Both the position numbers and the translations under genes were made by a program. A stretch of 64,000 bases of DNA, taken from positions 20,722 to 84,721 of the forward strand of contig CAIOAT010000004.1 of assembly GCA_903856085.1 (NCBI GenBank), read 5' to 3'. Under the pieces are notes generated by a model that saw only the letters and a list, made by a program, of their open reading frames with translations, made no database searches and was not told the origin of the DNA. Source of the DNA: Candidatus Omnitrophota bacterium (GTDB taxonomy: Bacteria; Omnitrophota; Omnitrophia; Omnitrophales; Aquincolibacteriaceae). Shown here in pieces: positions 8,574 through 54,974 of this stretch; the first letter of the stretch is position 1, and each line of letters opens with the position of its first letter.

Positions 8574-11500
8574 GTGAACGATCAAAAAACAACATCTCTC
8601 CCTAGAGCTAGTAACCCGTACGTGGCGGTAGCGTTGCTTCTGGCCATTCTTATCTTTGGGACATTTTTTACCTGGTGGACGGTTTTGCAGGCTGACCGCG
8701 TGGATCGCGAGGACCTGCTTCAACAGGCGCAGTTAGTGGCCCACGCGATTAGCATCGACCGCATCCAGAATCTTTCAGGCGCAGAGGCAGATCTCAGCAA
8801 TCCCAACTATTTGAAGCTCAAGGAACAGCTTGCGGCCGTCCGTTTGGCCAACCCCATGTGCCGATTCCTTTATTTTTTAGGACGTAAGCCGGACGGGCAG
8901 TTATTTTTTTTCGTGGACAGTGAACCCTCCAGTTCGAAAGACTATTCCCCTCCCGGGCAAATCTTTGGTGAGGCTCCGGTCGAGTATCACCGCATGTTCG
9001 ATACCAAAGTCACGGTTGTCGATGGTCCGATTCCTGACCGTTGGGGCGTGTGGGTCTCAGCGCTGGTTCCGGTGATCGATCCGAAAACCAGAGCCGTGGC
9101 CGCCGTGTTTGGGATGGATGTTGATGCCAGAACCTGGAAATGGGATGTGGCCTCAAAGGCCGCCCTTCCCGCGGGATTGATGATCGTATTACTCATAGGT
9201 GTGGGGGCCGCGTTTTTTTCGTCTCGTAGCGTTTCCGTATCGCCCAAACCGGTCTTGCGGCGTCTGATGATGCCCCTTACGATTATGGTGTTCCTGCTGA
9301 TGGTTGGTGTGGGGACGATCTTGTGGTATCAGCACCAGCGGCAATTGGCTGCGGGTATAGCAAACATTGCTTCCGAGGTTGCCGGTGATCTGCACTTGGC
9401 GCTGGACCAGCAGACGGCGGGCCTGGCTGCGGCCTTGCAGCCTATTGTCATCGATTCAGGCTTGCAGAAGGCTCTGCGTGAAGGCGATGCTGACCGCTTG
9501 TTTGCCACTTGGCGGCCTGTCTTCGACGCGATGCATCGAGAAAACCACCTTACGCATTTCAACTTCATCACAGTCGATCGCATTGTCCTGCTGCGCGTCC
9601 AGGATCCGAAAAAACGGGGCGACCTCGTCAATCGCTTCACGATCCTTGAGGCCGAGCGCACTGGCAAGATCGCCTCAGGCATCGAATCGGGATTGGTCGG
9701 TGTTTTTACACTGCGCGTAGTGCAACCGGTTTTTGCCGAAGGTAAGCTTATCGGATATGTAGAGCTTGGCAAAGAGATGGAGGAGGTGCTGAAATCGTTG
9801 CCCTATCGGCCCGGCATTCAACTTGCCGTGGTCATTCGCAAAGAGAATCTGAACCGACAGAAATGTGAAGAAGGTATGCGCCTGCTTGGGCGGGATGTCG
9901 AGTGGGATCGCCTGCCCCGAAGCGTGGTAATTTTTGCTTCCCAGGGACGTTTGCCGGGAGCCTTCGCGTTTTGGGCGGACAGCCTTTCGGGTGACCACAC
10001 CCACGTCGGAATGGAAAGAGAGATTACCTTCCAAGGGAAGGATTGGCGGCTATCCGCGACGCCCTTGTCGGACGCTTCGGGCAAAGAGGTCGGCAATCTG
10101 TTGGTGATGAGTGATGTCTCCGTTCAAAAGGCGGTCTTCGCGCACCTGCTGGCCCTGGGCGGAACTGGCAGTGTGGTGCTGCTCATGCTGTTGCTCGCCT
10201 TTCTCTACGTTCTGCTTCGGCGCACTGACGCAGGAATTCTTGCTCAGCAGACCAGATTGCAAAAGAGTGAGGCCCATTTTCGAAGTTATTTTGAGCTTCC
10301 CCTTATTGGCATTGCTGTTATTTCGCCTAGTAAAGGCTGGGTTCAGGTCAATGATCGGATCTGTTCCTTGCTCGGTTATACCCGGGAAGAGCTTGTCCAA
10401 ATGACCTGGTCAGAAATGACCCACCCGGAAGACCTTGTCTTAGATATCGAGCAATTTGATCGTTTGTTATCTGGTCAAATTGAGCAATATACCCTTGAGA
10501 AACGGTTTATCCGTAAAGACGGGCAAGCTGTCTGGACAGGTCTTTCCGCGGGGTGCGTGCGGGATTCCAAGGGGGATTCGGAATATATGGTTGCTTTCAT
10601 TAACGACATCAGCGAGCGTAAGAAGGCGGAAGATGAGGCAACACAAGAGCAGGCCCTCAACAAGACCATCATTGAAAGCATCCCCGGGACTTTCTACATG
10701 GTTGATGCGAATGGCCGGTATCTTCGATGGAGCGCCTATCAACGCGATGAAATTGTTGGAAAACCGGAAAGCCAAGTTGCCTCGAGCTATGCCAAGGACA
10801 CCATCCATCCGGACGATCGTGAGCGCGTCCTTGCGAAAATCACGAACGTTTTAAAGTATGGTATGGATGAGGTCGTAGAGGGCCGAGTTCTGTTGCGCGG
10901 CGGGCCTGCCTTCCGGTGGATGCTGATGACGGGGCGGCGACTTATCATCCAAGGCAATCCCGTCCTGATTGGTATCGGCATTGACATCACCGAACGCAAG
11001 AAGACGGAGGAGGCTCTGAGCGTCAGCAAGGCAGAGCTTGATCTCGCGATGAGGTCAGCCAAAATGGGCGTCTGGCAATTTAATATAGTCGAGAACAAAC
11101 GTTTTTTTGATGATCAGACATGCTCTCTTCTGGGGCTCGATCCGGCGACCTTTGGCGGAACGGCCGAGGAATTATATGCGGTAATACATTCCGAGGACCG
11201 TGAAAAGATCAAAGCAGCTTTCGCCCGCACGGTTGAAAAGGGTGTGCCTTACCAACCTGAATATCGCGTGGTTTGGCCTGATGGGAGTATTCATTACATC
11301 ACCAGTCGGGGTGAATTGGTCCGTGATGAGAAAGGTGGCCCTGAAAGGGTCCACGGCATTCTCTGGGATATTTCCGAACAAAAACAGGCGGAAGAATTGA
11401 TAAAGGATTCCGAAGAGAGATTGCAGGTATTGTTTGAATTCGCTCCGGATGGATATTATTTGCTCAATAGTAAAGGGGATTTTATTGGCGGCAACAGGAT

Positions 11501-13706
11501 GGCCGAAGTTTTAACCGGATATCAGAAAGAAGAACTTATCGGTAAGAGTTTTTTGAAGTTAACCCTGCTGTCTCTTGTGCAGATGCCCAAGGCAGTGGCT
11601 CTTCTTGCTAAGAATCTTATCGGGAAGGCAGGCGGTCCTGATGAGTTCACTCTTTTAAAGAAAGACGGCACTCATGTGGCTGTCGAGATCAGGACCTATC
11701 CGGTTAAGATCAAAGGCGAGATGGTGGTTTTGGGGAACGCGCGTGACATCACCGAGCGAAAGAAGGCGGAAGCAGCGTTGCGAGAGAGCGAGAAGGAAAA
11801 GAGATTGCTCTTCGAGCAGTCCCTTGCGGCCATTGCGATCCACGAGATCGTGTTGGATGAAAATGGCCGGCCGGTGGACTATGTCTTCCTCAATGCCAAT
11901 CCAGCCTTCGAGATCCACACCGGACTACGGCTGGCCAATATTCTGGGTCGTCGGGCCACCGAAGTCCTGCCGGGCATCGAGAGGGCGTCTTTCATCGAGA
12001 TCTATGGCAAAGTCGCGTTGACCGGGGAGCCGATCACTTTTGAGCAGTATGCGGAAGTGCTGGGGAAGCATTTCTTCATCAACGTTTTTCAGATGGGCAA
12101 GGGGCGTTTCGGGACGGTATTTACCGATATTACCGAACGCAAAAAGGCGGAAGAGAAAATAACGAGAGCGGCGGCCGAATGGCGAAGGACCTTTGACAGT
12201 ATCTCGGACATGGTATTCATTCTGGATAAAGAGCATACACTGGTTCGGGCGAATCGAGCGGTTTTTGATGCTTTTAAGGTGCGACCGGAAGAAATCCTTG
12301 GGAAAAAATGCTATGACTGGGTCCATCGCACGGGACATCCCGATCAGGGCTGTCCTTTCGAGGTGTTACTAAATGATAAAAAAACGCACTCCGCAGAAGT
12401 CCAGGGTCCGAATGGAGAGATCCTTTGGGTGACGGTTTCTCCTATCTTCGACGAACATGGGGAGCTTCAGGGCGCGGTTCATATTGCCTCGGACGTGACG
12501 GAGCGGAAAAAAATAGAATTAGAGGTCAAGGAAGGCCGCGACTATTTGAAGCGTATCATGGATGCTGTTGCGGATCCTATCTTTGTCAAGAACAGCGAAT
12601 ACAATTGGGTTCTTTTTAACGATGCGTTTTGTAAATTCATGGGGCGTTCCGCAGACGAGATCTTTGGCAAGACGGATTATGCTTTTTTCCCTAAAAACGA
12701 GGCGGATATTTTCCGGAAAAAAGACAAAGAGGTTTTTGAAAACGGCGCGGAAAGTATCAACGAAGAATCGTTCACGGATGCCGGGGGTGTTACCCATGTG
12801 ATCGTGACAAAGAAGTCGCTTTACACAGACCTGAAAGGGGAAAAATTACTCGTTGGTATCATCCGGGATGTTACGGAATTAAAGCGGATCGAAGAAGAAC
12901 TCAGAAAACACAGCGGGCATCTCGAGGAATTGGTCCAGGACCGGACGGTGGAGCTTGAGCTGAGCAACCAAAAACTGAAAATGACGGCTGAAGATCTGAA
13001 GCGGGCCAGTAAGGCGAAAAGTGAATTTCTGGCTAATATGTCCCATGAGCTCCGGACGCCGCTTTCCTCGGTCATTGGGTTCTCGGAAGTTCTTTTTGAT
13101 GAGAAGTTTGGTGCGATGAATGAGCGGCAGAAAAAATACGCTCAAAATATCATGAGCAGCGGCCGGCATCTGCTCTCTCTTATCAATGATGTTTTGGATC
13201 TTTCGAAAGTGGAGGCCGGCAAAATGGTGCTGCAGGCGTCCCTTTTTTCGGTCAAAGGCTGCTTGGAAGAAGTGTTGCGGGTGACGGATGGTCTGGCTTT
13301 CTCAAAAAAGATCAACCCCGTTGTGGAAATTCCGGACGATCTTGGCACGATCCATGCCGATCAGCGTAAGATCAAACAGATCGTTTTCAATTTGATGTCC
13401 AACGCGATCAAATTTACTCCCGCCGGCGGAAAGGTCGGACTCCGGGTCCGGAGGGACGATGCCGGGATCGAAGTTGTTGTGTGGGATACGGGGATCGGGA
13501 TCGCTCAGGAAAATCTCGGAAGGGTTTTTGAAGCTTTTACCCGTCTCGAAGACGCTTATACGCAGGAGACGGAGGGCACGGGGTTGGGGTTGACGATCAC
13601 CCAAAAAATAGTGGAGCTTCATGGCGGGACGATCTCTGTCAAGTCCGAAGGGATCGGGAAAGGGACGTCCGTGCAGTTCACGATCCCGGCCGCAAGGGGA
13701 GTCTGA
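8574..13706 (+). CDS. multi-sensor signal transduction histidine kinase (two extracytoplasmic sensor domains, 7 PAS/PAC domains, HisKA, HATPase_c)
   Basis: GTG start with an RBS. TM helices flank two periplasmic regions. PAC-linker motifs (D[IV]TERKKAE) recur seven times. H-box ANMSHELRTPLSSVIGFSEVL. N, G1 (VWDTGIGI) and G2 (GTGLGLTI) boxes. Confidence 0.85.
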   Translation: MNDQKTTSLPRASNPYVAVALLLAILIFGTFFTWWTVLQADRVDREDLLQQAQLVAHAISIDRIQNLSGAEADLSNPNYLKLKEQLAAVRLANPMCRFLYFLGRKPDGQLFFFVDSEPSSSKDYSPPGQIFGEAPVEYHRMFDTKVTVVDGPIPDRWGVWVSALVPVIDPKTRAVAAVFGMDVDARTWKWDVASKAALPAGLMIVLLIGVGAAFFSSRSVSVSPKPVLRRLMMPLTIMVFLLMVGVGTILWYQHQRQLAAGIANIASEVAGDLHLALDQQTAGLAAALQPIVIDSGLQKALREGDADRLFATWRPVFDAMHRENHLTHFNFITVDRIVLLRVQDPKKRGDLVNRFTILEAERTGKIASGIESGLVGVFTLRVVQPVFAEGKLIGYVELGKEMEEVLKSLPYRPGIQLAVVIRKENLNRQKCEEGMRLLGRDVEWDRLPRSVVIFASQGRLPGAFAFWADSLSGDHTHVGMEREITFQGKDWRLSATPLSDASGKEVGNLLVMSDVSVQKAVFAHLLALGGTGSVVLLMLLLAFLYVLLRRTDAGILAQQTRLQKSEAHFRSYFELPLIGIAVISPSKGWVQVNDRICSLLGYTREELVQMTWSEMTHPEDLVLDIEQFDRLLSGQIEQYTLEKRFIRKDGQAVWTGLSAGCVRDSKGDSEYMVAFINDISERKKAEDEATQEQALNKTIIESIPGTFYMVDANGRYLRWSAYQRDEIVGKPESQVASSYAKDTIHPDDRERVLAKITNVLKYGMDEVVEGRVLLRGGPAFRWMLMTGRRLIIQGNPVLIGIGIDITERKKTEEALSVSKAELDLAMRSAKMGVWQFNIVENKRFFDDQTCSLLGLDPATFGGTAEELYAVIHSEDREKIKAAFARTVEKGVPYQPEYRVVWPDGSIHYITSRGELVRDEKGGPERVHGILWDISEQKQAEELIKDSEERLQVLFEFAPDGYYLLNSKGDFIGGNRMAEVLTGYQKEELIGKSFLKLTLLSLVQMPKAVALLAKNLIGKAGGPDEFTLLKKDGTHVAVEIRTYPVKIKGEMVVLGNARDITERKKAEAALRESEKEKRLLFEQSLAAIAIHEIVLDENGRPVDYVFLNANPAFEIHTGLRLANILGRRATEVLPGIERASFIEIYGKVALTGEPITFEQYAEVLGKHFFINVFQMGKGRFGTVFTDITERKKAEEKITRAAAEWRRTFDSISDMVFILDKEHTLVRANRAVFDAFKVRPEEILGKKCYDWVHRTGHPDQGCPFEVLLNDKKTHSAEVQGPNGEILWVTVSPIFDEHGELQGAVHIASDVTERKKIELEVKEGRDYLKRIMDAVADPIFVKNSEYNWVLFNDAFCKFMGRSADEIFGKTDYAFFPKNEADIFRKKDKEVFENGAESINEESFTDAGGVTHVIVTKKSLYTDLKGEKLLVGIIRDVTELKRIEEELRKHSGHLEELVQDRTVELELSNQKLKMTAEDLKRASKAKSEFLANMSHELRTPLSSVIGFSEVLFDEKFGAMNERQKKYAQNIMSSGRHLLSLINDVLDLSKVEAGKMVLQASLFSVKGCLEEVLRVTDGLAFSKKINPVVEIPDDLGTIHADQRKIKQIVFNLMSNAIKFTPAGGKVGLRVRRDDAGIEVVVWDTGIGIAQENLGRVFEAFTRLEDAYTQETEGTGLGLTITQKIVELHGGTISVKSEGIGKGTSVQFTIPAARGV

Positions 13707-23449: not shown

Positions 23450-25078
23450 TTACTCGATGCTGCCCGAGTAGTTCGAGGATTTTTTCTTATCCTCTTCTTT
23501 TTTCTCTTTGGGTTTATCCGCGATCACGCACTCGGTGGTGAGAATGAGGCCCGCGATACTGCAGGCGTTCTCCACCGCGATACGGACGACCTTGGCCGGG
23601 TCAATGACCTTGGCCTTAACAAGGTCCTCAAATTCGCAGGTCAGCGCGTTGAATCCGAAGTCCCCTTTGTTTTCAAGGATCTTCTTCACGACGACTGATC
23701 CGTCGGCCCCGGCATTGTGGGCGATCTTACGGGCCGGTTCCTGTAGCGCCCGGCGAACGATCTGAACGCCTGTGGCTTCATCGCCCGACGCTTTAACGTC
23801 ATCAAGCGATGCGATGGAGCGCAGAAGTGCCACGCCGCCGCCTGGGACGATGCCTTCGTCGATGGCCGCGCGGGTTGCATGAAGCGCGTCCTCGATGCGG
23901 GCTTTCATTTCTTTCATTTCCACTTCCGTTGCTGCGCCGACCTTCACAACGGCCACGCCGCCGGAAAGTTTCGCAAGTCGTTCCTGGAGCTTTTCTTTAT
24001 CGTAATCCGAGTCCGACCGTTCGATCTCGGCTTTGATCTGATCACAACGGGACTTGATATCTTTCTGGGTTCCCGCGCTTCCCACGATCGTGGTGTTATC
24101 CTTATCGATCACCACGCGCTGGGCTGTGCCGAGCATTTCGAGGTCGACATTTTCGAGTTTTACGCCGAGATCTTCTGAAATGAACTTGCCCTTGGTGATG
24201 ATCGCAATATCTTCCATCAAGGCTTTGCGCCGGTCCCCGAATCCGGGAGCCTTTACGGCTGCGATCTGGAGCACGCCGCGGATCTTGTTGACCACGAGTG
24301 TCGCAAGAGCTTCGCCTTCAATGTCTTCCGAGATGATGAGCAGGGGCTTGCCGAGGCGCGCCACTTTCTCAAGCACTGGGACGAGGTCCTTTACGGCACT
24401 GACTTTTTTCTCGTAAAGAAGGATGTAAGGTTCTTTCAAGACCACTTCCATCCGCTCAGCGTCGGTCACAAAATAAGGCGACAAGTAGCCGCGGTCGAAT
24501 TGCATCCCCTCAACCACGTCCAGTTCGGTCTTGAGACCTTTCGCTTCTTCGACCGTGATCACGCCTTCTTTGCCGACCTTTTCTAGAGCATCCGCCAGAA
24601 GCTGACCGATCGATTGGTCGTTATTGGCGCTGATGGCGCCGACGGCCGTGATGTCCTCTTTGCCTTTGACGGCCTTGGACATTTTCTTGATCGTGTCGAC
24701 GATCTTCGCGGAGGCTCTATCAATACCGCGCTTCAAGGCCATAGGATTGGCACCGGCGGTGACGTTCTTTAAACCCTCGGAAACGATAGCCTGAGCCAGG
24801 ACCGTCGCGGTCGTGGTTCCGTCTCCAGCGTTATCCGAAGTCTTTTCCGCGACTTCCCGGACCATTTGGGCGCCCATATTCTCATACGGGTCCTTCAGGT
24901 CGATCTCTTTGGCGACCGTGACACCGTCTTTGGTCACAAGGGGTGCGCCGAATTTCTTATCGATCACAACATTGCGGCCGCGGGGACCGAGCGTGACGCT
25001 GACAGCCCTTGCGAGGATGTCGACGCCGCGTTTGATCCGCTGGCGCGCTTCTTCCGAGTAGGAAATCAATTTTGCCAT
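23450..25078 (-). CDS. groEL: chaperonin GroEL paralogue (distal copy; lacks the GGM tail and ends in a Lys/Glu-rich tail)
   Basis: Full-length Cpn60: [17 protein letters not shown], etc. C-terminus is [21 protein letters not shown] instead of GGM repeats. Confidence 0.9.
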
Positions 25079-25424: not shown

Positions 25425-27113
<1,689 letters not shown>

Positions 27114-38597: not shown

Positions 38598-38653
38598 AGG
38601 GGAACGGGGAACGCGGAAGTTCTTTCGTTACCCGTTAGCCGTTTCCCGTTCCA
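38598..38653. repeat. GC-rich intergenic repeat family, copy B (GGGGAACGGGGAACGCGGAAGTTCTTTCGTTACCCGTTAGCCGTTTCCCGTTCC), forms a long imperfect hairpin
   Basis: Arms GGAACGGGGAACG and CGTTTCCCGTTCC are near-complementary. Lies after the cus-operon stop and overlaps the 3' end of the GT2 gene. Confidence 0.4.
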
Positions 38654-42222: not shown

Positions 42223-42439
42223 TCTCGCGAAAATTTTTACGAAGCCCACTCAAAAACTCCGTCGGGAAGTGCGTCTTTCCAGCAGCGGCCTCGATGAGAA
42301 ATCCTGGCTTTCGGCCTCCTTAGCGTGGCTCAACACACTTCCCGTTTTCGCAGTCCAGGGAAATGTTAGCAGGCTCGAACTCAGAATAAGGTGCGCCGGG
42401 AAGAAACTCCGCTGGAGGAAAAGGGGCAAATTGAGTAGA

Positions 42440-43309: not shown

Positions 43310-43849
43310 ATGAGCCGCATTCAACCGTTGGACCCGGAAAAAGCGCAAGGCAAGACCCAAGAACTTTTGACGGCGATCAAGGCCAAGTCGGGGCGTGTTC
43401 CCAATATCCTCAAGACCATGGCCCATTCGTCCGTGGCGCTTCAAGCCTATATGGGACTCTCCGGAGCTTTTGCCGACGCGAAGCTGCCTCTCAAATTGCG
43501 CGAACAGATCGCGCTTGCCGTAGGGGAGGACAATCAATGTCATTATTGCGTCGCGGCACACTCCGCGATCGGGAAACTTTCAGGGCTTACGCCTGAGGAG
43601 ATCGAAGCGGGCCGCAGGGCCAACTCCCGGGATCCCAAAACGGACGCGATCCTCAAATTTGCCAAAAGGCTTTCGTCTCATCGTGGAAATATCACCGATC
43701 CGGAATGGGCGGAAATTCGAAAAGCAGGTTGTTCGGACGAGGAAATCCTTGAGATCATCACGGCCGTTTCGCTCAACCTTTTCACCAATTATGTGAACCA
43801 TGTGGCGGAAACAGCGATCGATTTTCCGCAGGTTCTGCCGCTCTCATAA
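43310..43849 (+). CDS. carboxymuconolactone decarboxylase / AhpD-like peroxidase family protein
   Basis: CxxC..H motif as NQCHYCVAAHS, typical of the AhpD core. Confidence 0.7.
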   Translation: MSRIQPLDPEKAQGKTQELLTAIKAKSGRVPNILKTMAHSSVALQAYMGLSGAFADAKLPLKLREQIALAVGEDNQCHYCVAAHSAIGKLSGLTPEEIEAGRRANSRDPKTDAILKFAKRLSSHRGNITDPEWAEIRKAGCSDEEILEIITAVSLNLFTNYVNHVAETAIDFPQVLPLS

Positions 43850-43855
43850 ACTCTT

Positions 43856-44434
43856 ATGAAACTATTAAAGTCTCTGGATTCACTTATCCTGCGCGAGAAA
43901 AAAAAATACTCCGGCATTCCGGAAAACTGGAAGTTAAAGCCCGTTTGCTGTCTTTCGGATGCCTCCGAAGAGGAGGTCTATTACGCGGCCTCGGAGGGCG
44001 GGACGGTTTCGGAGCTGGCTGCTTTTCGCAAATCGTATGCGTTCACGCTTTATCTCCTCAACCGGAAAGGGGAGGAGAATCTTTATTTTAAGAAAAACGC
44101 CGGACTTTTTGCAAATAAGATAGAGATCTTTGACGCGGCTGAGAATCTGCTCGGCTCTGTTCAGAAACAAGGGTCTTCGAAAACGCACTTTCAGGTCCTG
44201 GATGCGGGTGGAAATGTTCTTTACACCATTGAAGGTCCTCCCGTGAATCCCGAGACCTTTCATATACGGAAGGGCAACGCCACATTAGGCAAGATCAGCA
44301 AGCGGCCGACCCCCACCGTGGAAGAGGGCGTGTCCCGCAACGATCATTTCGGGATTGTGTTTCCGTTTGCCGCCGACACGGCGGAAAAAAGCATTCTCCT
44401 GGGCGCTCTTTTTTTGATCGACCTCACGTTTTAA
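43856..44434 (+). CDS. hypothetical protein (possibly tubby-like LOR/scramblase fold)
   Basis: 192 aa. Weak resemblance to LURP-one-related/scramblase proteins. Not firmly recognised. Confidence 0.3.
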   Translation: MKLLKSLDSLILREKKKYSGIPENWKLKPVCCLSDASEEEVYYAASEGGTVSELAAFRKSYAFTLYLLNRKGEENLYFKKNAGLFANKIEIFDAAENLLGSVQKQGSSKTHFQVLDAGGNVLYTIEGPPVNPETFHIRKGNATLGKISKRPTPTVEEGVSRNDHFGIVFPFAADTAEKSILLGALFLIDLTF

Positions 44435-44638
44435 AGCGAAAGCGCCAGATTTCCCTGCCTCAATAAAAATCAAAATAACCATTCTAGTGCCATTTTGGAT
44501 CATTTAAAGCTATTAATTGCTATGTATTGCTGTTATTATGGCTATTAACTTATATAAACAGTGTTATTTATTAACAAGTTTATAAGAAGCTATTGACTAC
44601 AGCCGATCTGTAGAGTACTTTTCTATTGGAGAGACATA

Positions 44639-45589
44639 ATGAAAAAAGGAAATGTTTTAGACCAACAATTGGGATGTGTGAAAGCCTGGGATTGGAGTCC
44701 GGAGATGCGAGATCCGAGCTTTGCTTTCGAGACTTTTGACGCTGAAGCATTGATGGGCCGGCAAGTCACAAGTCACATGTCTCGAGTTCTCGCGTCGAAA
44801 TCGGATTGGAAAAAATTAGTCGCTCTCAGCACAGCTTTCATATTCCTCTGGTCCATGTGCATCACCCCCGTGATGGCCGAGACGATCAAGCTGGAAGGCG
44901 GATCGGTGGAGGTGAATGTCCAGGACAACACAACGAATTGGAAAGTGCAGGGCAACCCGGTGTGGAATGTTCCGGAGTTCAATGTCGCTCAGGGAAGTAT
45001 TTACAATATCGCGGGTCTTGGCACCGGCTCAAGCCTTGCGCTTTTGGTGAATGGCGGTAGCGCGTCCAACATCTTTGGCACCATGAATTTATTCAACCTC
45101 GATTTTATCCTTCAGAATATCGCCGGCATCAATATCGGCAGAAGTGCCATGATCAATCTCAATAGCGCTTCTCTTATAGCTTCAACCCTGCCGCTTAACT
45201 TGAGCGCGACGGATTTTCTGGCGCGCAACTATCAGTTCAGTGGGCAGGGTGCGTTCTTATCCAATGCCGGCCACATCATCGGTACGAATGCGAATCTCGT
45301 GGCCCTTGTATCCAATACCATCGAGAACACAGGAACGATCGAAGTTCCGATGGGCACCGTGGCCCTGGCTGCGGGGAACACCGTGCAGTCGGTATTTCAG
45401 CAGACGGTCTCGTGTCGATCGGCGTCGATGAGGCTACGGCGAATAAGCTCGGCCTTGCGGACCAGATCAAGAATAGCGGTACGATCTCGGCCCAGGGCGG
45501 CAAGGTTGTTCTTAACGCCAAAGCCGTCGACGGACTTTTTGAAAAGGCGATCAACATCGCCCCAGGAGCCAATGCCACGGCTGTGGTGA
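44639..45589 (+). CDS. N-terminal segment of the giant exoprotein: extended signal peptide plus TPS (filamentous haemagglutinin N-terminal) domain. The frame is lost near 45395 and the remainder of this ORF is out-of-frame read-through.
   Basis: About 55-aa N-terminal extension, then classical signal peptide LVALSTAFIFLWSMCITPVMA. EFNVAQGSIYNI..LLVNGGSASNIFG..NIAGINIG..NLNSASLIAST parallels the TPS-domain pattern (FNV..G.vfNN, NPNGI, LtT). The last 60 aa are Arg-rich low complexity. Confidence 0.6.
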   Translation: MKKGNVLDQQLGCVKAWDWSPEMRDPSFAFETFDAEALMGRQVTSHMSRVLASKSDWKKLVALSTAFIFLWSMCITPVMAETIKLEGGSVEVNVQDNTTNWKVQGNPVWNVPEFNVAQGSIYNIAGLGTGSSLALLVNGGSASNIFGTMNLFNLDFILQNIAGINIGRSAMINLNSASLIASTLPLNLSATDFLARNYQFSGQGAFLSNAGHIIGTNANLVALVSNTIENTGTIEVPMGTVALAAGNTVQSVFQQTVSCRSASMRLRRISSALRTRSRIAVRSRPRAARLFLTPKPSTDFLKRRSTSPQEPMPRLW

Positions 45590-48500
45590 AGTCCGATGAT
45601 GGCGTGATCGAATTTGTTGCACAGGGGAACATCCTGAATCAGGGAACTGTGCAGGCCAAACGCGGCGAGATCAAAATGGAAGCTACGGGCGACATTGAGA
45701 CGCGTGGAAGTCTTGTGGCTTCCCGTTTTTCTGAGAAGGCCGCTGCCTTCAAGATCAGCGGGCTCTATATGGTCGGCATTTCGTCCCACAACAATCTGGA
45801 TAATGCCATCACCTATACCGGCAACACCACGGTTTCCGGCACGATCGAGGACGTGGACGATATTATCATCAATGCCGGCGTGACCATCACTTTGGCCGGT
45901 GATACGAGCTTCGTCGCCGATTCCGATCAGAATTACAGCCTCACCGGGCACAACACCGGAGCTTTCACCATGGGCGCGGGTTCGTCGATCGACGGTACGG
46001 CCGGGCATCACTATAACCTGTCGATTAGCGCCTCCAAAGTATCGCACCTCTATAACATTGCGAATGTCGGCTCTCTGACCCTCGGTGCATCTAGGACTGG
46101 CTCCAATCCTTCTTACGTCATGCATAACGCTATTTCCACCGCCAGTGATTTTACGTTGAACAAAGGAACCGCGACGCTCGCGGGCGGCGATCTGACGGTC
46201 GGAGGTATTTTTACGGTTGGAGAAGGCGCGATTTTCAACGAAACGACCGATATGGCAGGCGCTAATGCGTATGTCGCCCATTTCGGTTCAGACGATATTG
46301 TCGGAACTTATCGGAATGTTAGTAACGGAACTGCTGCGATGCGCGTGGCCTCGGTTTCAGATCTGCAGGCCGTGCGTGATGTCCTTGACCAGAACTATGT
46401 TCAGACAGGCGACATCTCGGGCGTTGGGGATTTCACGAACTATATCATCGGTGATGGCGATACTCCTTTCACCGGCACGTTTAACGGCAACGGGTATACG
46501 ATCGACAGTCTTACCCTCAACACGGGTGCCGATAACGTCGGTCTCTTCGGCTACACGAGCGGCGCCACGATCCAGAATGTCGGACTTATCCATGTTAATG
46601 TCACGGGCGTTAGTAACGTCGGCGGTCTTGTGGGACATAACAGTGCTTCTTCTACGATTGATAATTCGTATGTGGAAGGAGATGTCGTCGCGAATGGGGG
46701 GGATTACGGAGGGGGACTTGTTGGTGACAATGAAGGAACTATCACCAATTCCTACACGAGTGGGAGCGTGTCAGGCGGTTATTACAACATTGGAGGGCTT
46801 GCCGGAGGCAACTATGGCGGCGCAATCGATAGCTCTCATTCGAGTAGCAGCGTATCCGGTCAACATAGCACAGGCGGTCTTGTCGGGAGTAATGAAGGTG
46901 GGTCGATCACCCATTCTTACGCCACGGGGGATGTTTACGGCGAAAATTATGCAACAGGGGGACTTGTCGGACAAAATGGATATCTGGTTTCGGGCAGTAT
47001 AGACAATTCCTACGCCACCGGAGATGTTACTTCGTCAGGCAGCCAGGTGGGCGGTCTTGTCGGATACTCCTGGGGAACGACTCGCGGTTCGATCTCCAAC
47101 TCTTACGCCACGGGGGATGTGAGTGCTGACGGAGCCGTCGGCGGTTTAGTCGGCGTTCTCAATAATGAAGACCTTTTAAATTCCTATGCCACGGGAAATG
47201 TGACTGGGGGTTCGGACGTAGGTGGCCTCGTGGGGCTTAGCCTCCTTTCTTTTGTCGAAAATAGCTACGCTAAAGGGACTGTCATCGGCACTGATCGGGT
47301 CGGTGGTCTTGTAGGACAGAACGAAGGGACCATCTCTAAATCCTACGCCACAGCGAATGTTAACGAAACCGGTGGTGGCTCCACCGAAGGTGCTGGTGGC
47401 CTTGTGGGATTTAATGAGGGAATTATTTCCGAATCCTATGCCACAGGTTCGGTTCTCGGCAATTACATTGCTGGCGGGTTGGTAGGCTGGAACAGCAGTA
47501 CAATTTCTAACTCTTACGCTACCGGCACCGTGGGAGGGAGTCAATATGCGGGTGGTCTTGTTGGGGTTAATGATAATTTATCCCAAATCGATAATTCCTA
47601 TGCCACGGGCCTTGTCAATAATGGCGTCGGAGGGGCTAACATCGGCGGTTTCATCGGGTTGAGTTTGAGTGATGCATACGCCGGTAACTTTTGGAATCAA
47701 GAGACGACCCAGCAGGGTTATGGGACGGGTGCTGGCGATGTCGATGGTATTACGGGAAAGACCACTCTTCCGATGGAAGATGTCACCACTTTTACGAACG
47801 CAGGATGGGATTTCAATGGGCTTTGGAAGATCAATGCGGGGGAAGCTCCGCACCTGATCTGGCAGGACATGACCTACAGTACCGACTTTATTGGTGGAAC
47901 TTCGGCGATGCCGATGCAGATCCACAATGTCAACGAGTTGCAGTTTATGAAGTACGAGCTCAGCAGTTCTTTTAAACTCGTTCAGGACATCGATGCTTCG
48001 AGCACGGTGGGATGGAATGGCGGCTTGGGATTTGCTACGGTTGGCGATATTAACAATTATTTTACAGGAACATTTGACGGGCAGGGTCACACGATCACAG
48101 GTCTCACGATCAATCGCTCGACGGGTTATCCGAACAACTTTTCTATCCCGGAATACTCGGATATCGGTCTTTTTGGCAGAACGGAAGGGGCGAAGATAAG
48201 CAATGTAGGTCTCCTCGACGTGAACATCACGGGAGACCTGTTTGTTGGCGGGCTTGTCGGTTGGAACGGCACCGGATCTTCCGTTACCAATTCTTATGTC
48301 ACAGGAAGCGTCGAGGGCTACTATGACCAGATCGGCGGTTTGGTAGGGCGAAATTTTCAGGGGGCCATTAGTAATTCTTATTCGAAAGCCACGGTTCGAG
48401 GACACTGGTGGTGGGTGGGAGGATTGGCAGGTATTTCCGACGGCGGCAGTATCACTAACTCCTATGCTGCTGGGGACGTCTACGACGATGTTGGGGGCGG

Positions 48501-51500
48501 CACTGGTGGTTTGTTAGGTCATAGCGGGGGCTCTTCGATCAGCAATTCGTATGCTGTCGGAAGCGTAAACGGCGTTTGGTATGTGGGTGGTTTAATCGGA
48601 TATGACGGGGGAGGGAACGCCTTTGCCAACAACTGGTGGTGGAAAAGCGCCGGACACAACGCCGGACTGAATGATACCGGGACTTCCGGTGATCTTCCTA
48701 ATACCCAGATTGCCACAGAAGAAACACTGTCTAATTTTTATTCTCCCGCTCACGCGGTGTACGCAATCGGTGCGGCAGGGCAATGGGATATTTTCACTCC
48801 CATTTGGGATATGTATGCGAATGAATTTCCAAGGTTGCATTTTGAAGGTCACAACGGCAACATCTATTCTGTGTGGAGCGGCGCTTCATCCGTCTGGTCT
48901 GCCGCCTCGAATTGGGTGGGGAATGCCTTGCCGGGTGACAATATTTTTATCAGTCATCGTACCTTTGATCCCATTGTGGATGCCGATGTTGCTTCTTCAA
49001 TCGTCATTATCAACTCTGGAGCAACGCTTGATCTTGGAAGTTTCAGTCTTTCCGGCGTTGTTACGAATTTGGGTACCGTAAAACTTGTCGGGGACAATAT
49101 CTCGGTATCGGCGATCACGGAAGGTACGGTCAATTATTACGGTACAGGCACCTATGCCGGCCTTAAAGCAGGTTATGACTATATGAACCTCATTTTTTCC
49201 GGCGTGGGCGGGACCTATACGATCAACAACTCCCTTACCACTTCAGGAGATATGACGATTGAGGCAGGCACCATCAATCAGAATGCCGGACTTTCCATCG
49301 GCGGCAATTTTTCCCAATCGGGTGGCACGCTTAATCAAAACGCCGGGCTTTCTGTCTTCGGAGGTTTCTTCAAATCCGGCGGCATATTCAATAATAATGC
49401 AGCGATTACTTTGGCCATGGATTTTCTCTCGCTGGTAGGAGGGACGTTCAACCAGAACGTGGCCATGATTCTTGCGAACTACAACCAAAGCGGCGGCGCC
49501 TTCAATCAAAATAATAATCTTTTCATCGGCGGTGATTATATCCAGACAGGTGGGACATTCATGGATGCTGCGCCGCTGGCGCATGCTTTCACCGTTGAAG
49601 GTAGTTTCTCACTGCCGTACGGGACGAACGCGTTCCGCCGTTACACGGGAGCGGGCACGACGAACGATCCTTTCGTGATCCGGAATCTTTACGATCTTCA
49701 GGGCCTGAAGGGGAATCTTACCTCGAATTTCAAATTAAACACGAGTCTGGATGCATCATCGATTTCCGGATGGAATGCCGACGCCGGTTTTGATCCGATC
49801 GGGGACGCGACACACGCATTCACGGGAACCTTGAGTGGTTTTGGGAAAGTGATCTCGAACCTCACGATGCATTGGGAGGGGAACGATTACGTGGGTCTTT
49901 TCGGGAATATCGGTGTCGGTGGTTTGGTGAGCGAACTTGCGCTCGAAAAAGTGAGCTCGTATGGCCGTCATTATGTCGGAGGTCTGGCGGGTCTTAATGA
50001 AGGCACGCTTTCGAATGTTTACACGACGGGATCTTTTACGGTCAGCGGTGTGAATTTTGTTGGAGGTCTTGTGGGAGGGAACACGGGCTCGATCGCGAAC
50101 GCTTATTCCAGTGCTCGCGTGGTTGGGACAGATACCGTGGGCGGTTTGGCAGGTTTCAATACCGGAACGATCCAAAAGACTTACGCAATGGGTCAAGTGA
50201 CGGGTTCTTCCAATACCGGCGGCCTTGTCGGTACCGGCACCGGAACTGTGGCGAATTCTTTTTGGAGTCAGAAAATGACCGGGCAAGCGACAAGCGCCGG
50301 AGGGACCGCGGGTAAAGTGATCGGTATCACGACCAATGACGAGGGCTATGCGGTTCCGGATCCCGAAGATGTCGCGGATCCGGCTTCCGATATGATGAGC
50401 TCCGGCACGTTCTCGGGATGGGATTTCGGGAGCACCTGGGTGATGGACGAAGGCGGGTCTTTCCCCCACTTCCAGTTCCGTTTTCCTGAGGGTGTGCGCG
50501 GGGTTTGGGGAGTTGTCTATAACACGGAGGGTGCTACCACGGAGGCCGGCAGGACTGTTGATCTTTACGTAAACACAAATTCTTTGGACACGACCGGTCT
50601 TGGGACCCAGGTGGATACCACGAGGAGCACCGCGGACGGGATGTATTATTTTGTGATGGGAGCGAATGATGTTCAGGCCCAAGATTGGGTGATCGGCAAG
50701 CTGAACGGTGGGGACAATTTTACGGGGAACACCCGGATGCCCGCCGAAACGGGGAGCATCAAAGAACTGGATATTTGGGGGACCCTGGCGCGGATGATTC
50801 CCCATCCGAAAGAGCCGCCGCCGATTCGCATTCCCGCGAATGAGTCCTTGCAAGAGGCCCAGGGGGAGGTTAACCGGAGCCTTCAAAGTCTGATGAACAA
50901 CACCGGCCAAATAGCCTCGCTTGAAGGAGTCTGGGGCAAGGCGTCGGATGTTCAGATCCAGGATCAAACGCTATCCGTTTCTGGGATAGAGATGACTATT
51001 TCTGAAAACGCTTGGATTTCTTTTTATGACGAATCCGCGCCGGGGATTGAACCGGTTCCGACGTTCACTTTGACCCATGTTGGGACGGAAACCGCGGGGC
51101 TCCAGTCCGGGAGTACGAAATCGGTGATGCTTGAGATCGCTGAAAATCTCGTGCAATCTCCGAAAGGACGTGAGGCCTCCGGGAGCGCGGAGTCCTCCTC
51201 TGTTTCGTCAGCAGGTGGACAGGCAACCGATGCGACCGATTCTGCCAATGCCGCGGCTCAAGCAAGTGATGAGTCAACGGGCAGCGATGCGGCGGCTTCG
51301 CCTGCGACTGAAGCCGCGGATGAAAATGCCGATGCGGCTGGCCAGAAAGCTTTGGCGGCGGACGAACAGACGGACGAAAACGCAGAAGCTGTCGACCAGG
51401 CAGTTTCTGCAAACGATGAGCAAGCGACAGAGAGTCAAACTTCTCCGGAAAAAAACGCGGCAAGCTCCGCGGATCGTGGCGCAAAGAGCAGCTCCAACTT

Positions 51501-52341
51501 TTTTGGTGAGGAAGCGAAAAAATTCCTGACGGATGTTCGAGTGATCGATGGAGTGGTGTATGTGGTGGATAGCGCCAGCGAGGTATCCCTTTTGACTCCC
51601 GGAGAATCGGTGCGTGTACTTTTCAAGGAGCAGTCGGGTCTTGTGAAAGCCAGGGGGACGGCTTCTGTCGCGGGAGTTCTAGATCCAATACCCATGCCTG
51701 TGAAGGCTGATCCGTTGCCGGTACTGGCCGTGAAAACGGATCCGCCGCCGTTGATGGCTCTAAAGGCGGACCCATCGGATGCTCGTATCAAAGCCGATTT
51801 TTCGACAGTGAGCGTGAAAACCAACCCGCCGGAAACGGTTGAGAAGGTCGATTTGCCTGTGAAGGCTGCCAATGTCCCGCCGATGTTCACGCCGCAGGAG
51901 CCCAAGGATATTGCAAAGCTCGGGCTGTTTGCGGTTCAGAGAACGACAAATAGCGGAGTGCGGTACGGAACTCTGAAGAATCCTGGGAAGAACGTATTTG
52001 TGAAATGTCCGGGCGGGGAATGGCAGGCGGCGAAGGAGGGCATGATCATTCTTCCGGGAGATGAGGTCCGGACAGCGGCTCAAAGCTCCGTGGAGGTGTT
52101 GCTGGATGATGGCAAGGTCGGGCAGCTTAAGATCCAGGAAGGGAGTTTATTCCGCATCAATAAAGCCGAGACGAACCCCGCGACCGAAGGCAAAACAACG
52201 CTCCTGGATCTCGCGATCGGGAAGATGTTGATCAAGGTCGGGAAGCTCAAAGGGGACTCGAAGTTTGAGGTCCGCACTCCGACTGCGCTCACCGGCGTCC
52301 GTGGTACCGTTTTCGAGGTGACCGTGAAGGAAAAAGTTTAA
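45412..52341 (+). CDS. giant surface/exoprotein body: filamentous beta-helix, more than 30 GLUG-motif repeats, beta-helix NQN repeats, acidic linker, VKxDP repeats and a C-terminal FecR-like domain. Continuous with 44639..45403 apart from a -1 frameshift.
   Basis: Recurring about 27-aa unit NSYATGxVxGxxxVGGLVGxNxGxI (GLUG motif). GGTxNQNAGLSIGGNF repeats. D/E/A-rich stretch near 51180-51500. VKADPLPVLAVKTDPPPLMALKADP repeats. C-terminal LPGDEVRT..VLLDDG..RTPTALTGVRGTVFEVTV matches the FecR domain pattern. Confidence 0.7.
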   Translation: MSIGVDEATANKLGLADQIKNSGTISAQGGKVVLNAKAVDGLFEKAINIAPGANATAVVKSDDGVIEFVAQGNILNQGTVQAKRGEIKMEATGDIETRGSLVASRFSEKAAAFKISGLYMVGISSHNNLDNAITYTGNTTVSGTIEDVDDIIINAGVTITLAGDTSFVADSDQNYSLTGHNTGAFTMGAGSSIDGTAGHHYNLSISASKVSHLYNIANVGSLTLGASRTGSNPSYVMHNAISTASDFTLNKGTATLAGGDLTVGGIFTVGEGAIFNETTDMAGANAYVAHFGSDDIVGTYRNVSNGTAAMRVASVSDLQAVRDVLDQNYVQTGDISGVGDFTNYIIGDGDTPFTGTFNGNGYTIDSLTLNTGADNVGLFGYTSGATIQNVGLIHVNVTGVSNVGGLVGHNSASSTIDNSYVEGDVVANGGDYGGGLVGDNEGTITNSYTSGSVSGGYYNIGGLAGGNYGGAIDSSHSSSSVSGQHSTGGLVGSNEGGSITHSYATGDVYGENYATGGLVGQNGYLVSGSIDNSYATGDVTSSGSQVGGLVGYSWGTTRGSISNSYATGDVSADGAVGGLVGVLNNEDLLNSYATGNVTGGSDVGGLVGLSLLSFVENSYAKGTVIGTDRVGGLVGQNEGTISKSYATANVNETGGGSTEGAGGLVGFNEGIISESYATGSVLGNYIAGGLVGWNSSTISNSYATGTVGGSQYAGGLVGVNDNLSQIDNSYATGLVNNGVGGANIGGFIGLSLSDAYAGNFWNQETTQQGYGTGAGDVDGITGKTTLPMEDVTTFTNAGWDFNGLWKINAGEAPHLIWQDMTYSTDFIGGTSAMPMQIHNVNELQFMKYELSSSFKLVQDIDASSTVGWNGGLGFATVGDINNYFTGTFDGQGHTITGLTINRSTGYPNNFSIPEYSDIGLFGRTEGAKISNVGLLDVNITGDLFVGGLVGWNGTGSSVTNSYVTGSVEGYYDQIGGLVGRNFQGAISNSYSKATVRGHWWWVGGLAGISDGGSITNSYAAGDVYDDVGGGTGGLLGHSGGSSISNSYAVGSVNGVWYVGGLIGYDGGGNAFANNWWWKSAGHNAGLNDTGTSGDLPNTQIATEETLSNFYSPAHAVYAIGAAGQWDIFTPIWDMYANEFPRLHFEGHNGNIYSVWSGASSVWSAASNWVGNALPGDNIFISHRTFDPIVDADVASSIVIINSGATLDLGSFSLSGVVTNLGTVKLVGDNISVSAITEGTVNYYGTGTYAGLKAGYDYMNLIFSGVGGTYTINNSLTTSGDMTIEAGTINQNAGLSIGGNFSQSGGTLNQNAGLSVFGGFFKSGGIFNNNAAITLAMDFLSLVGGTFNQNVAMILANYNQSGGAFNQNNNLFIGGDYIQTGGTFMDAAPLAHAFTVEGSFSLPYGTNAFRRYTGAGTTNDPFVIRNLYDLQGLKGNLTSNFKLNTSLDASSISGWNADAGFDPIGDATHAFTGTLSGFGKVISNLTMHWEGNDYVGLFGNIGVGGLVSELALEKVSSYGRHYVGGLAGLNEGTLSNVYTTGSFTVSGVNFVGGLVGGNTGSIANAYSSARVVGTDTVGGLAGFNTGTIQKTYAMGQVTGSSNTGGLVGTGTGTVANSFWSQKMTGQATSAGGTAGKVIGITTNDEGYAVPDPEDVADPASDMMSSGTFSGWDFGSTWVMDEGGSFPHFQFRFPEGVRGVWGVVYNTEGATTEAGRTVDLYVNTNSLDTTGLGTQVDTTRSTADGMYYFVMGANDVQAQDWVIGKLNGGDNFTGNTRMPAETGSIKELDIWGTLARMIPHPKEPPPIRIPANESLQEAQGEVNRSLQSLMNNTGQIASLEGVWGKASDVQIQDQTLSVSGIEMTISENAWISFYDESAPGIEPVPTFTLTHVGTETAGLQSGSTKSVMLEIAENLVQSPKGREASGSAESSSVSSAGGQATDATDSANAAAQASDESTGSDAAASPATEAADENADAAGQKALAADEQTDENAEAVDQAVSANDEQATESQTSPEKNAASSADRGAKSSSNFFGEEAKKFLTDVRVIDGVVYVVDSASEVSLLTPGESVRVLFKEQSGLVKARGTASVAGVLDPIPMPVKADPLPVLAVKTDPPPLMALKADPSDARIKADFSTVSVKTNPPETVEKVDLPVKAANVPPMFTPQEPKDIAKLGLFAVQRTTNSGVRYGTLKNPGKNVFVKCPGGEWQAAKEGMIILPGDEVRTAAQSSVEVLLDDGKVGQLKIQEGSLFRINKAETNPATEGKTTLLDLAIGKMLIKVGKLKGDSKFEVRTPTALTGVRGTVFEVTVKEKV

Positions 52342-53654: not shown

Positions 53655-54974
53655 TCAGGGGATGACTACGGTGAGGGCGGTGATGTCATCGTGCTGGTCA
53701 GCGCCGGTCGTGAAATTACGAACTTCCTCAAAGATCCTCTCCGAATAAGCCGCAGCCGAATCCGCCTCTTTCTTCACGCATTCCGCGAGCCGCTCAATCG
53801 TGTATTCCTTGCCGTGTTTGTCTCGCGCCTCCACAACACCGTCCGTGTAAAGGAAGAGGGCATCGCCTGATTCCAGGTGGATCGTGTTAAGAAAGAAAGG
53901 CGTCTCCGGCATCAGTCCGAGCGGCGGGCTCTGAGCTCCTTTCAGACTCTCCGCTGTGCCGTCCGTGATTTTTCTTAAAAGGATCGGGAGATGACCTGCC
54001 GAGGAATACTGGACAGTGTTCATATTCTTGTCGATGAGAAGGCAGATGATGGTGAGGAACATTCCAAACGGGCTGTTCACGGAAAGGCGTTGGTTGAGGG
54101 CTGTCAGAAGTTCGGCCGGATCCTTGGCCTGGGGCGCGAGAAAACGGTATTCCGACATCGCGCGGACCATATAAAGCGCGGCCGGAACGCCTTTTCCGGA
54201 CACGTCGCCCAAGATGACGCCGATCCGATTTCCTTCGAGTGCGATCACGTCATAGAGATCGCCGCCTACATCAAAGGCCGGAAGCGAAAGAGCGCTCAGA
54301 TCGATCCCGAAATGCCGGCTCGTGAGATCGGGAAGAAAATTCTGCTGGATCTCATGGGCGATCTTCAGGGCCTGTTTGGTCTTTTCCTGTTTGACGATCT
54401 CACCGTGGAGCCGTGCGTTCTCGATGGCAATGGCCGCCTGGTCTGCGAAGGTCTCGAAAAGTTCCAGATCTTCCTGGCAGAACTTATCGCGTCCCCGAGG
54501 ATTGATGGCCTGTAGAACGCCAAGGATCTTGCCTTTGGCTTTCATGGGGACGCAGAGGATCGCTCTTGTGACGAAGCCCGTGGAATCGTCAAAGCGTTTG
54601 GCGAAGCGCGGGTCTTTTTGAGGATGATTCACGATCTCGGGTTTTCCGGACGCTGCGACCGAACCGGCGATACCTTCGCCCATCTTTACACGGAATTTTT
54701 CTTCCAAGGCCGCGCCTTTACCGCCCAGCGCTACCCGGAACACCAATTCGTTGGAGGTTTCATCGATCAGGAGCAGCGACGCGACTTCGGAGTGCATGAC
54801 CTCGGAGGATGTGTTCATGATGACCGCGAGGAGTTCGTTCAGTTTGAGCGTGGAGTTGAGGATTCCTGTGAGCGCGAGAACTTTCCGGAGATTTTCAATT
54901 GTCGGATCTCCGGGGATTTTTTTGTCAGAAGCTCTCCGGGTTTTTTCACGGCGAACTTTTGTCGTTTTTCTCAT
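53655..54974 (-). CDS. GAF domain-containing PP2C-type (SpoIIE/RsbU family) serine phosphatase
   Basis: GAF region in the N-terminal half. C-terminal PP2C motifs (GDLYDV, GDVSGKG, LYTDGVVEA, DDITALTV). Start lies 9 nt downstream of the DUF3307 stop. Confidence 0.75.
   Translation of the reverse strand: MRKTTKVRREKTRRASDKKIPGDPTIENLRKVLALTGILNSTLKLNELLAVIMNTSSEVMHSEVASLLLIDETSNELVFRVALGGKGAALEEKFRVKMGEGIAGSVAASGKPEIVNHPQKDPRFAKRFDDSTGFVTRAILCVPMKAKGKILGVLQAINPRGRDKFCQEDLELFETFADQAAIAIENARLHGEIVKQEKTKQALKIAHEIQQNFLPDLTSRHFGIDLSALSLPAFDVGGDLYDVIALEGNRIGVILGDVSGKGVPAALYMVRAMSEYRFLAPQAKDPAELLTALNQRLSVNSPFGMFLTIICLLIDKNMNTVQYSSAGHLPILLRKITDGTAESLKGAQSPPLGLMPETPFFLNTIHLESGDALFLYTDGVVEARDKHGKEYTIERLAECVKKEADSAAAYSERIFEEVRNFTTGADQHDDITALTVVIP

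Follow-up and report, generated by a model that had tools for sequence, protein, structure and literature searches.

The TpsA exoproteins of type Vb, such as FhaB/FHA, HMW1, EtpA and HxuA, combine an extended signal peptide, a TPS domain and a very long repetitive passenger. The gene described here resembles them in all three respects. It lies in a stretch of 64,000 nucleotides of a Candidatus Omnitrophota contig that was analysed as a whole and is referred to below as the window. In contrast to the described TpsA genes, the window gene has no adjoining TpsB gene, its passenger is made up of GLUG repeats with a FecR domain at the end (the FecR domain being common to three full-length homologues), and it belongs to a family that is multi-copy in Omnitrophota-like MAGs, the break in the present copy lying within the TPS domain.

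Phase variation is classically seen in genes for surface adhesins, and many textbook cases of inactivated adhesins arise in homopolymers or other repeats (contingency loci). The window gene shares with frameshift-inactivated adhesin alleles a one-base indel that truncates a large surface or secreted protein, and the occurrence of both alleles among close strains; unlike those cases, its lesion lies in unique sequence, and it is known from metagenome assemblies of an uncultivated organism only. Programmed -1 frameshifting, as in dnaX and the transposases of IS elements, offers a further likeness, namely overlapping ORFs in the 0 and -1 frames that make sense if fused, whereas the window site has neither a slippery heptamer nor a stimulator, and the arrangement is not conserved in relatives. 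Giant ORFs are common in Omnitrophota, where roles in cell-cell attachment have been proposed (Seymour et al. 2023, PMC10066038), and giant putative adhesins have been reported as common in these bacteria (PMC10066038; PMC11573180). The window gene likewise encodes a very large, poorly annotated and putatively adhesive surface protein, although the giant ORFs of that report exceed 20 kb and the window gene measures 7.7 kb. Neither two-partner secretion nor GLUG, FecR or frameshifts came up in a term search of the same report (PMC10066038).

Our analysis indicates that the locus very probably carries a genuine, recent and strain-specific loss-of-function allele of a giant TpsA-like exoprotein gene. 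Judged from their translations, the two overlapping frames, ORF1 and ORF2, are the halves of one such gene (Table 1). Insertion of one base repairs the gene, so that 44639-52341 encodes a protein of 2,567 aa, in good agreement with the fusion product of about 2560 aa that a preceding sequence-only reading of this DNA had expected from a one-base correction. The rejoined gene has the layout signal peptide, TPS domain, GLUG repeats and a FecR domain at the C-terminus, and its C-terminus coincides with that of the full-length homologues L003, L019 and L025.

Table 1. Coordinates of the features of the broken exoprotein gene, given as window positions
Feature	Position	Strand	Description or basis
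ORF1	44639-45589	+	Frame 2, 316 aa; broken 5' piece of TpsA-like gene
ORF2	45412-52341	+	Frame 1, 2309 aa; broken 3' piece of TpsA-like gene
Native 5' part, codons 1-249	44639-45385	+	Translation; Pfam TPS; alignment with 9 homologues
N-terminal extension, 57 aa	Ahead of the signal-peptide-like segment, within 44639-45385	+	
Signal-peptide-like segment, aa 58-80, KKLVALSTAFIFLWSMCITPVMA/ET	Within 44639-45385	+	Predicted, read from sequence
TPS domain of repaired protein, about aa 79-365	44873-45732	+	Profile match to solved TPS structures
TAA, upstream bound of open frame 1	45196-45198	+	
Deletion site, A of Thr250 codon ACA lost	Between G45385 and C45386	+	GTG-[A]CA-GTC
Out-of-frame ORF1 tail, 67 Arg-rich nonsense codons	45386-45589	+	Followed by stop TGA 45587-45589
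Rest of ancestral gene, codons 251-2567 plus stop	45388-52341	+	Frame 1
First frame-1 GTG after the break	45412-45414	+	Start of the 2309-aa call in ENA assemblies and JGI 3300022555
GTG GTG A	45583-45589	+	GTG 45583 is the JGI start on the source contig, 2252-aa gene
FecR domain, C-terminal	52060-52326	+	Pfam

The native 5' part of ORF1 covers the TPS secretion domain up to approximately two thirds of its length and contains a putative Sec signal peptide (aa 58-81: KK, a hydrophobic stretch and VMA/ET) that is conserved in homologues. After ...GTVALAAGNTV, ORF1 reads QSVFQQTVSCRSASMRLRR..., a nonsense tail in which Arg accounts for 21% of the 67 residues, versus 2% in the native part, and which showed no similarity to any homologue in an alignment with nine of them. 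The sequence-only reading was thus right that frame 2 lapses into Arg-rich nonsense, but it had let the good sequence run through QSVFQQ, and those residues are already out of frame. Its description of frame 1 as sensible sequence that opens after a TAA holds in full: the frame is open from that codon, reads ..VGISADGLVSIGVDEATANKLG.. and runs on for 2,318 stop-free codons to 52341. The probability of such a long open frame arising by chance is approximately 10^-46, and the remaining two forward frames contain 77 and 119 stops. Besides the remaining third of the TPS domain, the segment downstream of the break contains a beta-helix-like region, the GLUG repeats, a linker of acidic/Pro-rich composition and the FecR domain. 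Accordingly, Pfam searches of ORF2 returned Glug (205.9 bits in 10 stretches), a Peptidase_M26_N-like segment and a C-terminal FecR.

Gene-calling pipelines treat the two pieces as independent genes, with JGI calling separate genes of 316 and 2,252 aa on contig Ga0114951_10000019 (3300009502, 223 kb). A literature search on the accessions of sample and contig yielded no publication. The alternative start at GTG 45412 is artefactual and has no signal peptide behind it. Moreover, an in-frame GTG of ORF2 (45586-88) sits on the stop TGA of ORF1 (45587-89), with AGGAG at 45564-68. One may speculate that this GTGA overlap, together with the AGGAG, could in principle let a signal-less ORF2 product re-initiate; the overlap itself is probably fortuitous.

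Alignment to homologues, which the sequence-only reading had recommended for locating the indel, assigned it to one base, the A of Thr250. A single 1-nt gap falls at the Thr250 column in each MAFFT DNA alignment (A3, A4). When the loci were compared at the codon level, the Thr250 codon was ACN between GTN and GTN/ATC in 14/14 loci, and only CA in the window. The deletion allele reads GTGCAGTC, and the intact allele in the sister strain (L029/L038) reads GTGACAGTC. A single-base deletion had therefore been correctly proposed, but its suggested placement near the GGGG and TTT runs has to be given up, as the gap is in neither of them: the nearest such runs occupy 45373-76 (GGGG) and 45395-97 (TTT). 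A repair at the TTT run was considered and rejected, because the homologue alignment put the true site 10 nt upstream, in unique sequence.

The break falls within the TPS domain. Pfam TPS (PF05860) matched ORF1 with 38.3 bits (cut-off 33.5) over aa 95-251, and this match ends at profile position 181 (positions 25-181 of 252), demonstrating that the domain in ORF1 is cut short. A profile of the repaired region and its homologues, matched against the PDB with classical TpsA sequences included, recovered the TPS domains of EtpA (8cpk), HxuA (4i84) and HMW1 (2odl), with E-values from 1.5e-78 to 7.7e-47. EtpA 8cpk gave the best of these (E=1.5e-78), and the PDB profile match crosses the junction (profile positions 3-271 of 276), which places the break about two thirds of the way through the domain. 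In phmmer alignments, junction position 172 was spanned in 22/23 homologues; the exception, P0012, is a partial sequence that starts inside the domain.

Other searches for the domain remained below threshold. TIGR01901 scored 21.1 bits, below its cut-off of 29.1, and PF05860 matched neither the TPS region after repair nor the 620 aa of the repaired N-terminus. The missing PF05860 match on the repaired protein probably reflects the HMMER bias filter and is not evidence against a TPS domain. The intact close homologues (P0001-P0008) also carry no precomputed PF05860 match, and the TPS-GLUG family seems, as these searches suggest, to be systematically under-annotated as TpsA. None of 18 ORFs scanned in the 64-kb window was recognized as TpsB (an Omp85-type POTRA/ShlB transporter), and no TpsB gene was found immediately upstream of 10 homologous loci; a partner encoded elsewhere in the genome, outside these 64 kb, may exist.

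A homologue search with the repaired N-terminus returned 23 proteins, nine of which are close relatives with 34-73% identity. All nine run GTVALAAGNTV-T-VGIS(P/G)DG(L/M)VSIG uninterrupted over the junction. A profile scan of species-representative genomes yielded 23 loci, to which later look-ups added more, and every homologous locus that covers the junction (22/22) crosses it in one frame and in a single tblastn segment, within open frames of 1,062 to >4,147 aa. A gene naturally split at this point, the observation that the sequence-only reading had set against its own interpretation, was therefore seen in none of them. Since the intact state is present in all outgroups, it is ancestral. The syntenic orthologue, L012, is also unsplit, and its upstream neighbours are 60% (histidine kinase), 89% (glycogen synthase), 68% (ion channel) and 64% (scramblase) identical to their window counterparts. 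Between L012 and the window gene the TPS domain alone is conserved (70%) and the passenger is rearranged; thus, L012 is unusable as an outgroup for polarising substitutions.

Homologues whose source is named come mostly from Candidatus Omnitrophota MAGs. The TPS-GLUG(-FecR) giant genes, of 1,000 to >4,100 aa, constitute a multi-copy family in Omnitrophota-like MAGs, with 8 loci (including L007, L008, L010-L012, L016 and L020) on MAG CAZSFZ01 and 5 loci on MAG CAYZYT01. These genes are scattered and adjoin unrelated housekeeping genes (L001-L023). The DNA of the paralogues L010 and L012, which belong to one MAG, is nearly identical around the TPS motif, suggesting gene conversion. Related MAGs carry six or more paralogous genes each, and the loss of one copy is therefore plausibly tolerated.

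Searches with the gene itself revealed no near-identical copy elsewhere: a single-protein scan of genome contigs found none, a profile scan of genome contigs found relatives of at most 71% identity only, and a scan of metagenome contigs found one relative of 60% identity. ORF1 forms a singleton cluster, and the 2252-aa JGI product was absent in an exact look-up. The same locus was instead found by exact look-up of the neighbouring proteins, the scramblase (43856-44434) and a CMD-family protein (43310-43849), which led to about 20 contigs of other assemblies. Two of them, L035 (ENA ERZ27313068, a 164-kb contig) and L036 (JGI 3300022555, a 230-kb contig), match the window with 100% identity over 20,579 nt, and both have the deletion. 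At least 13 contigs (17 index blocks), each of at least 50 kb, carry the exact 2309-aa product of ORF2; as this product can be called only in the broken frame, it marks deletion contigs.

The intact allele was found as well. The sister strain (L029/L038, ENA ERZ27313313) is 98.5% identical to the window over 16.4 kb and has an intact GTG-ACA-GTC, and its frame stays open for 2,334 codons up to the contig end. Gene calls on the ERZ1426828 and ERZ1426852 contigs give a 2,567-aa gene from the ORF1 start, exactly the repaired length. The tally of gene calls is a deletion on about 16/20 contigs and an intact gene on 4/20, where the deletion status of 12-13 contigs was taken from gene calls and exact-protein look-up and not from DNA. 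The independence of the assemblies was judged by their differing pipelines, sample accessions and contig sizes, and the alleles are known from assembled contigs. A random consensus error cannot recur in so many assemblies from at least two pipelines, and therefore the deletion is a real allele. Population heterogeneity at the site, for which the sequence-only reading had advised a search, is thus borne out by the presence of both intact and broken alleles among the assemblies.

No more than three indels separate the window from the sister strain over the 16.4 kb compared: one of 7 nt at 38605, one of 10 nt at 42367 and the missing A. The 7-nt (GGGGAAA) and 10-nt (TTTTTGTTCG) stretches are absent from the window strain and fall outside confident coding sequence. 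The 10-nt stretch belongs to the contested 5' region of the ion-channel gene, for which the pipelines give lengths of 277, 337 or 374 aa. The ERZ1426827 contig (67,481 nt) has upstream gene coordinates of the window type, which imply the same 7-nt and 10-nt deletions, and its giant gene is called from the ORF1 start with 2,032 aa, that is, with an intact junction by gene call. This contig may represent the immediate ancestor haplotype of the deletion allele. Given its intact junction and window-type flanks, both alleles may coexist on nearly one background, and the combination could also hint at reversion.

Comparison of the gene between the window and the sister strain revealed no second indel or stop, which argues that the deletion event is young. 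By the Nei-Gojobori method, this comparison gave 6 synonymous and 4 non-synonymous changes upstream of the break (dN/dS 0.19), and 38 synonymous and 16 non-synonymous changes downstream of it (dN/dS 0.13). By our own arithmetic, neutral drift of the window lineage since the split of the strains should have led to ~65 non-synonymous changes downstream. The low downstream dN/dS therefore means that either the deletion is much younger than the ~2.6% synonymous divergence or constraint on ORF2 persists; the value is equally compatible with an ORF2 that is still selected and still used somehow.

The divergence between the two strains is mosaic. In the comparison of window 44639-51640 with L038 9431-16432, all differing codons (63/63) fall in codons 1-1198, and codons 1199-2334 (3.4 kb) are identical. 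A dense and mostly synonymous patch holds 11 SNPs at 45603-45669, and the upstream intergenic region holds 15 SNPs at 44457-44633. This mosaic pattern suggests recombination between strains or with paralogues.

Several other explanations for the split frame were weighed. The base might be present in the real genome and dropped from the consensus by sequencing or assembly, as a single-base indel in a metagenome contig would allow, and the flanking DNA is highly conserved among paralogues and could confuse assemblers. However, the deletion lies outside any homopolymer and recurs in two JGI assemblies and in MEGAHIT-style assemblies of ENA, whose contigs show 100% identity over 20.6 kb, and its 2309-aa product recurs as described above. 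Moreover, the intact allele was recovered by the same pipelines in other samples, and the other long window genes tested (a 1710-aa kinase, a 1118-aa ACR_tran protein and two GroEL) match their families over the full length. Because the site is no homopolymer and the deletion is reproducible across assemblies, we reject the assembly or homopolymer error that the sequence-only reading had entertained, and consider an artefact of any kind highly improbable. The same reading had raised phase variation, that is, a reversible on/off switch by gain or loss of one base. Both alleles do exist in nature, and ERZ1426827 appears, from its gene calls, to join window-type flanks with an intact junction, but high-frequency reversible slippage is not expected where there is no simple-sequence repeat or homopolymer. 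Tandem Repeats Finder detected no tandem repeats at the site, and the only homopolymer of at least 5 bases in the 45199-45589 overlap is a T5 at 45536, 150 nt from the deletion. In addition, the intact allele that was read in DNA sits on a ~1.5% diverged background and hence belongs to a different strain rather than to a switch variant. Heterogeneity in the population is consistent with that proposal, but the mechanism is unsupported since the site has no repeat, and we regard a reversible switch as extremely improbable.

It is just as hard to credit that the full-length exoprotein is still made through programmed -1 ribosomal frameshifting or another form of recoding. If the ribosome slipped by -1 after GTG (Val249), the product would read ...NTV-A-VGIS... 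and be as long as the homologues, with ...AAGNTV[A/T]VGISADGLVSIGVDEATANK... as the junction peptide of the recoded or intact form; ORF2 is perfectly intact with a dN/dS of 0.13, and the deletion allele is the form most often assembled. Nevertheless, no X_XXY_YYZ heptamer occurs at the site (C-GTG-CAG) or elsewhere in the 45199-45589 overlap, and the predicted fold of 45389-45480 (92 nt) has -27.8 kcal/mol and z = -0.01 versus shuffles, revealing no stimulatory structure. No frameshift is needed in the 22 homologous loci or in the sister strain, and a conserved signal would be common to relatives, whereas this arrangement is confined to a clone. A functional split, wherein the truncated TPS fragment, the signal-less ORF2 product or both have roles of their own, is very unlikely as well. 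In such a case, ORF2 would be started at GTG 45412 or re-initiated at GTGA 45586-89, and the frame is indeed open for 2,309 codons, the stop and start overlap with AGGAG upstream of GTG 45583, and the deletion strain persists across many samples. On the other hand, none of the homologues is split, no cytoplasmic role is known for a GLUG/FecR passenger that lacks an export signal, ORF1 ends in Arg-rich nonsense, and the recent origin of the mutation fully accounts for the intact ORF2.

Taken together, these data favour a recent knockout in one strain. In its ancestral form the gene encoded 2,567 aa, in the order N-terminal extension, signal peptide, TPS domain, passenger of the beta-helical/GLUG-repeat type and FecR domain at the C-terminus. 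With the A of the Thr250 codon lost at 45385/45386, in a non-repetitive context within the TPS domain, translation from the native start yields 249 native and 67 nonsense residues before the stop at 45587-89. The remaining 2,317 codons have neither a signal peptide nor an intact TPS domain, so that the passenger would not be exported. The secreted protein is thus predicted to be lost, and the presence of paralogues in related genomes leads us to infer that this gene copy is dispensable. Pseudogenisation of an adhesin, one of the outcomes that the sequence-only reading had listed, is the one that agrees with a deletion found in many assemblies and an intact codon in the 98.5%-identical sister strain, with the adhesin role being putative. 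The event is of a familiar kind, a frameshift-inactivated surface-protein allele segregating among close strains, and reveals no new mechanism.

The dominance of the knockout allele (about 16/20 contigs) may reflect positive selection, or the intact ORF2 (dN/dS 0.13) may be expressed unconventionally, although we consider either unlikely. If positive selection were at work in the natural population of this uncultivated, Omnitrophota-like and perhaps host-associated bacterium, a cell that has lost the exoprotein might, for example, escape recognition by a phage, a predator or a host. For annotation, the 316-aa 'TPS protein' and the 2,252- or 2,309-aa 'GLUG/FecR protein' are pieces of one broken 2,567-aa gene, and the public gene calls at this locus deserve to be annotated as a frameshifted pseudogene or allele. 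In this uncultivated lineage, the locus represents a clean natural case of a loss-of-function polymorphism affecting a giant putative adhesin, with both alleles in public assemblies, and this allele pair lends itself to asking whether single members of such multi-copy giant exoproteins are dispensable.

Signalling genes are unusually abundant in the window. A sensor histidine kinase of 1,710 aa with dCache_3 and multiple PAS domains is encoded at 8574-13706 on the plus strand, and the giant gene is flanked by several more kinases, response regulators and a GAF-SpoIIE phosphatase (53655-54974, minus strand). A tandem pair of full-length GroEL (Cpn60) paralogues is also found in the window, at 23450-25078 and 25425-27092, both on the minus strand.
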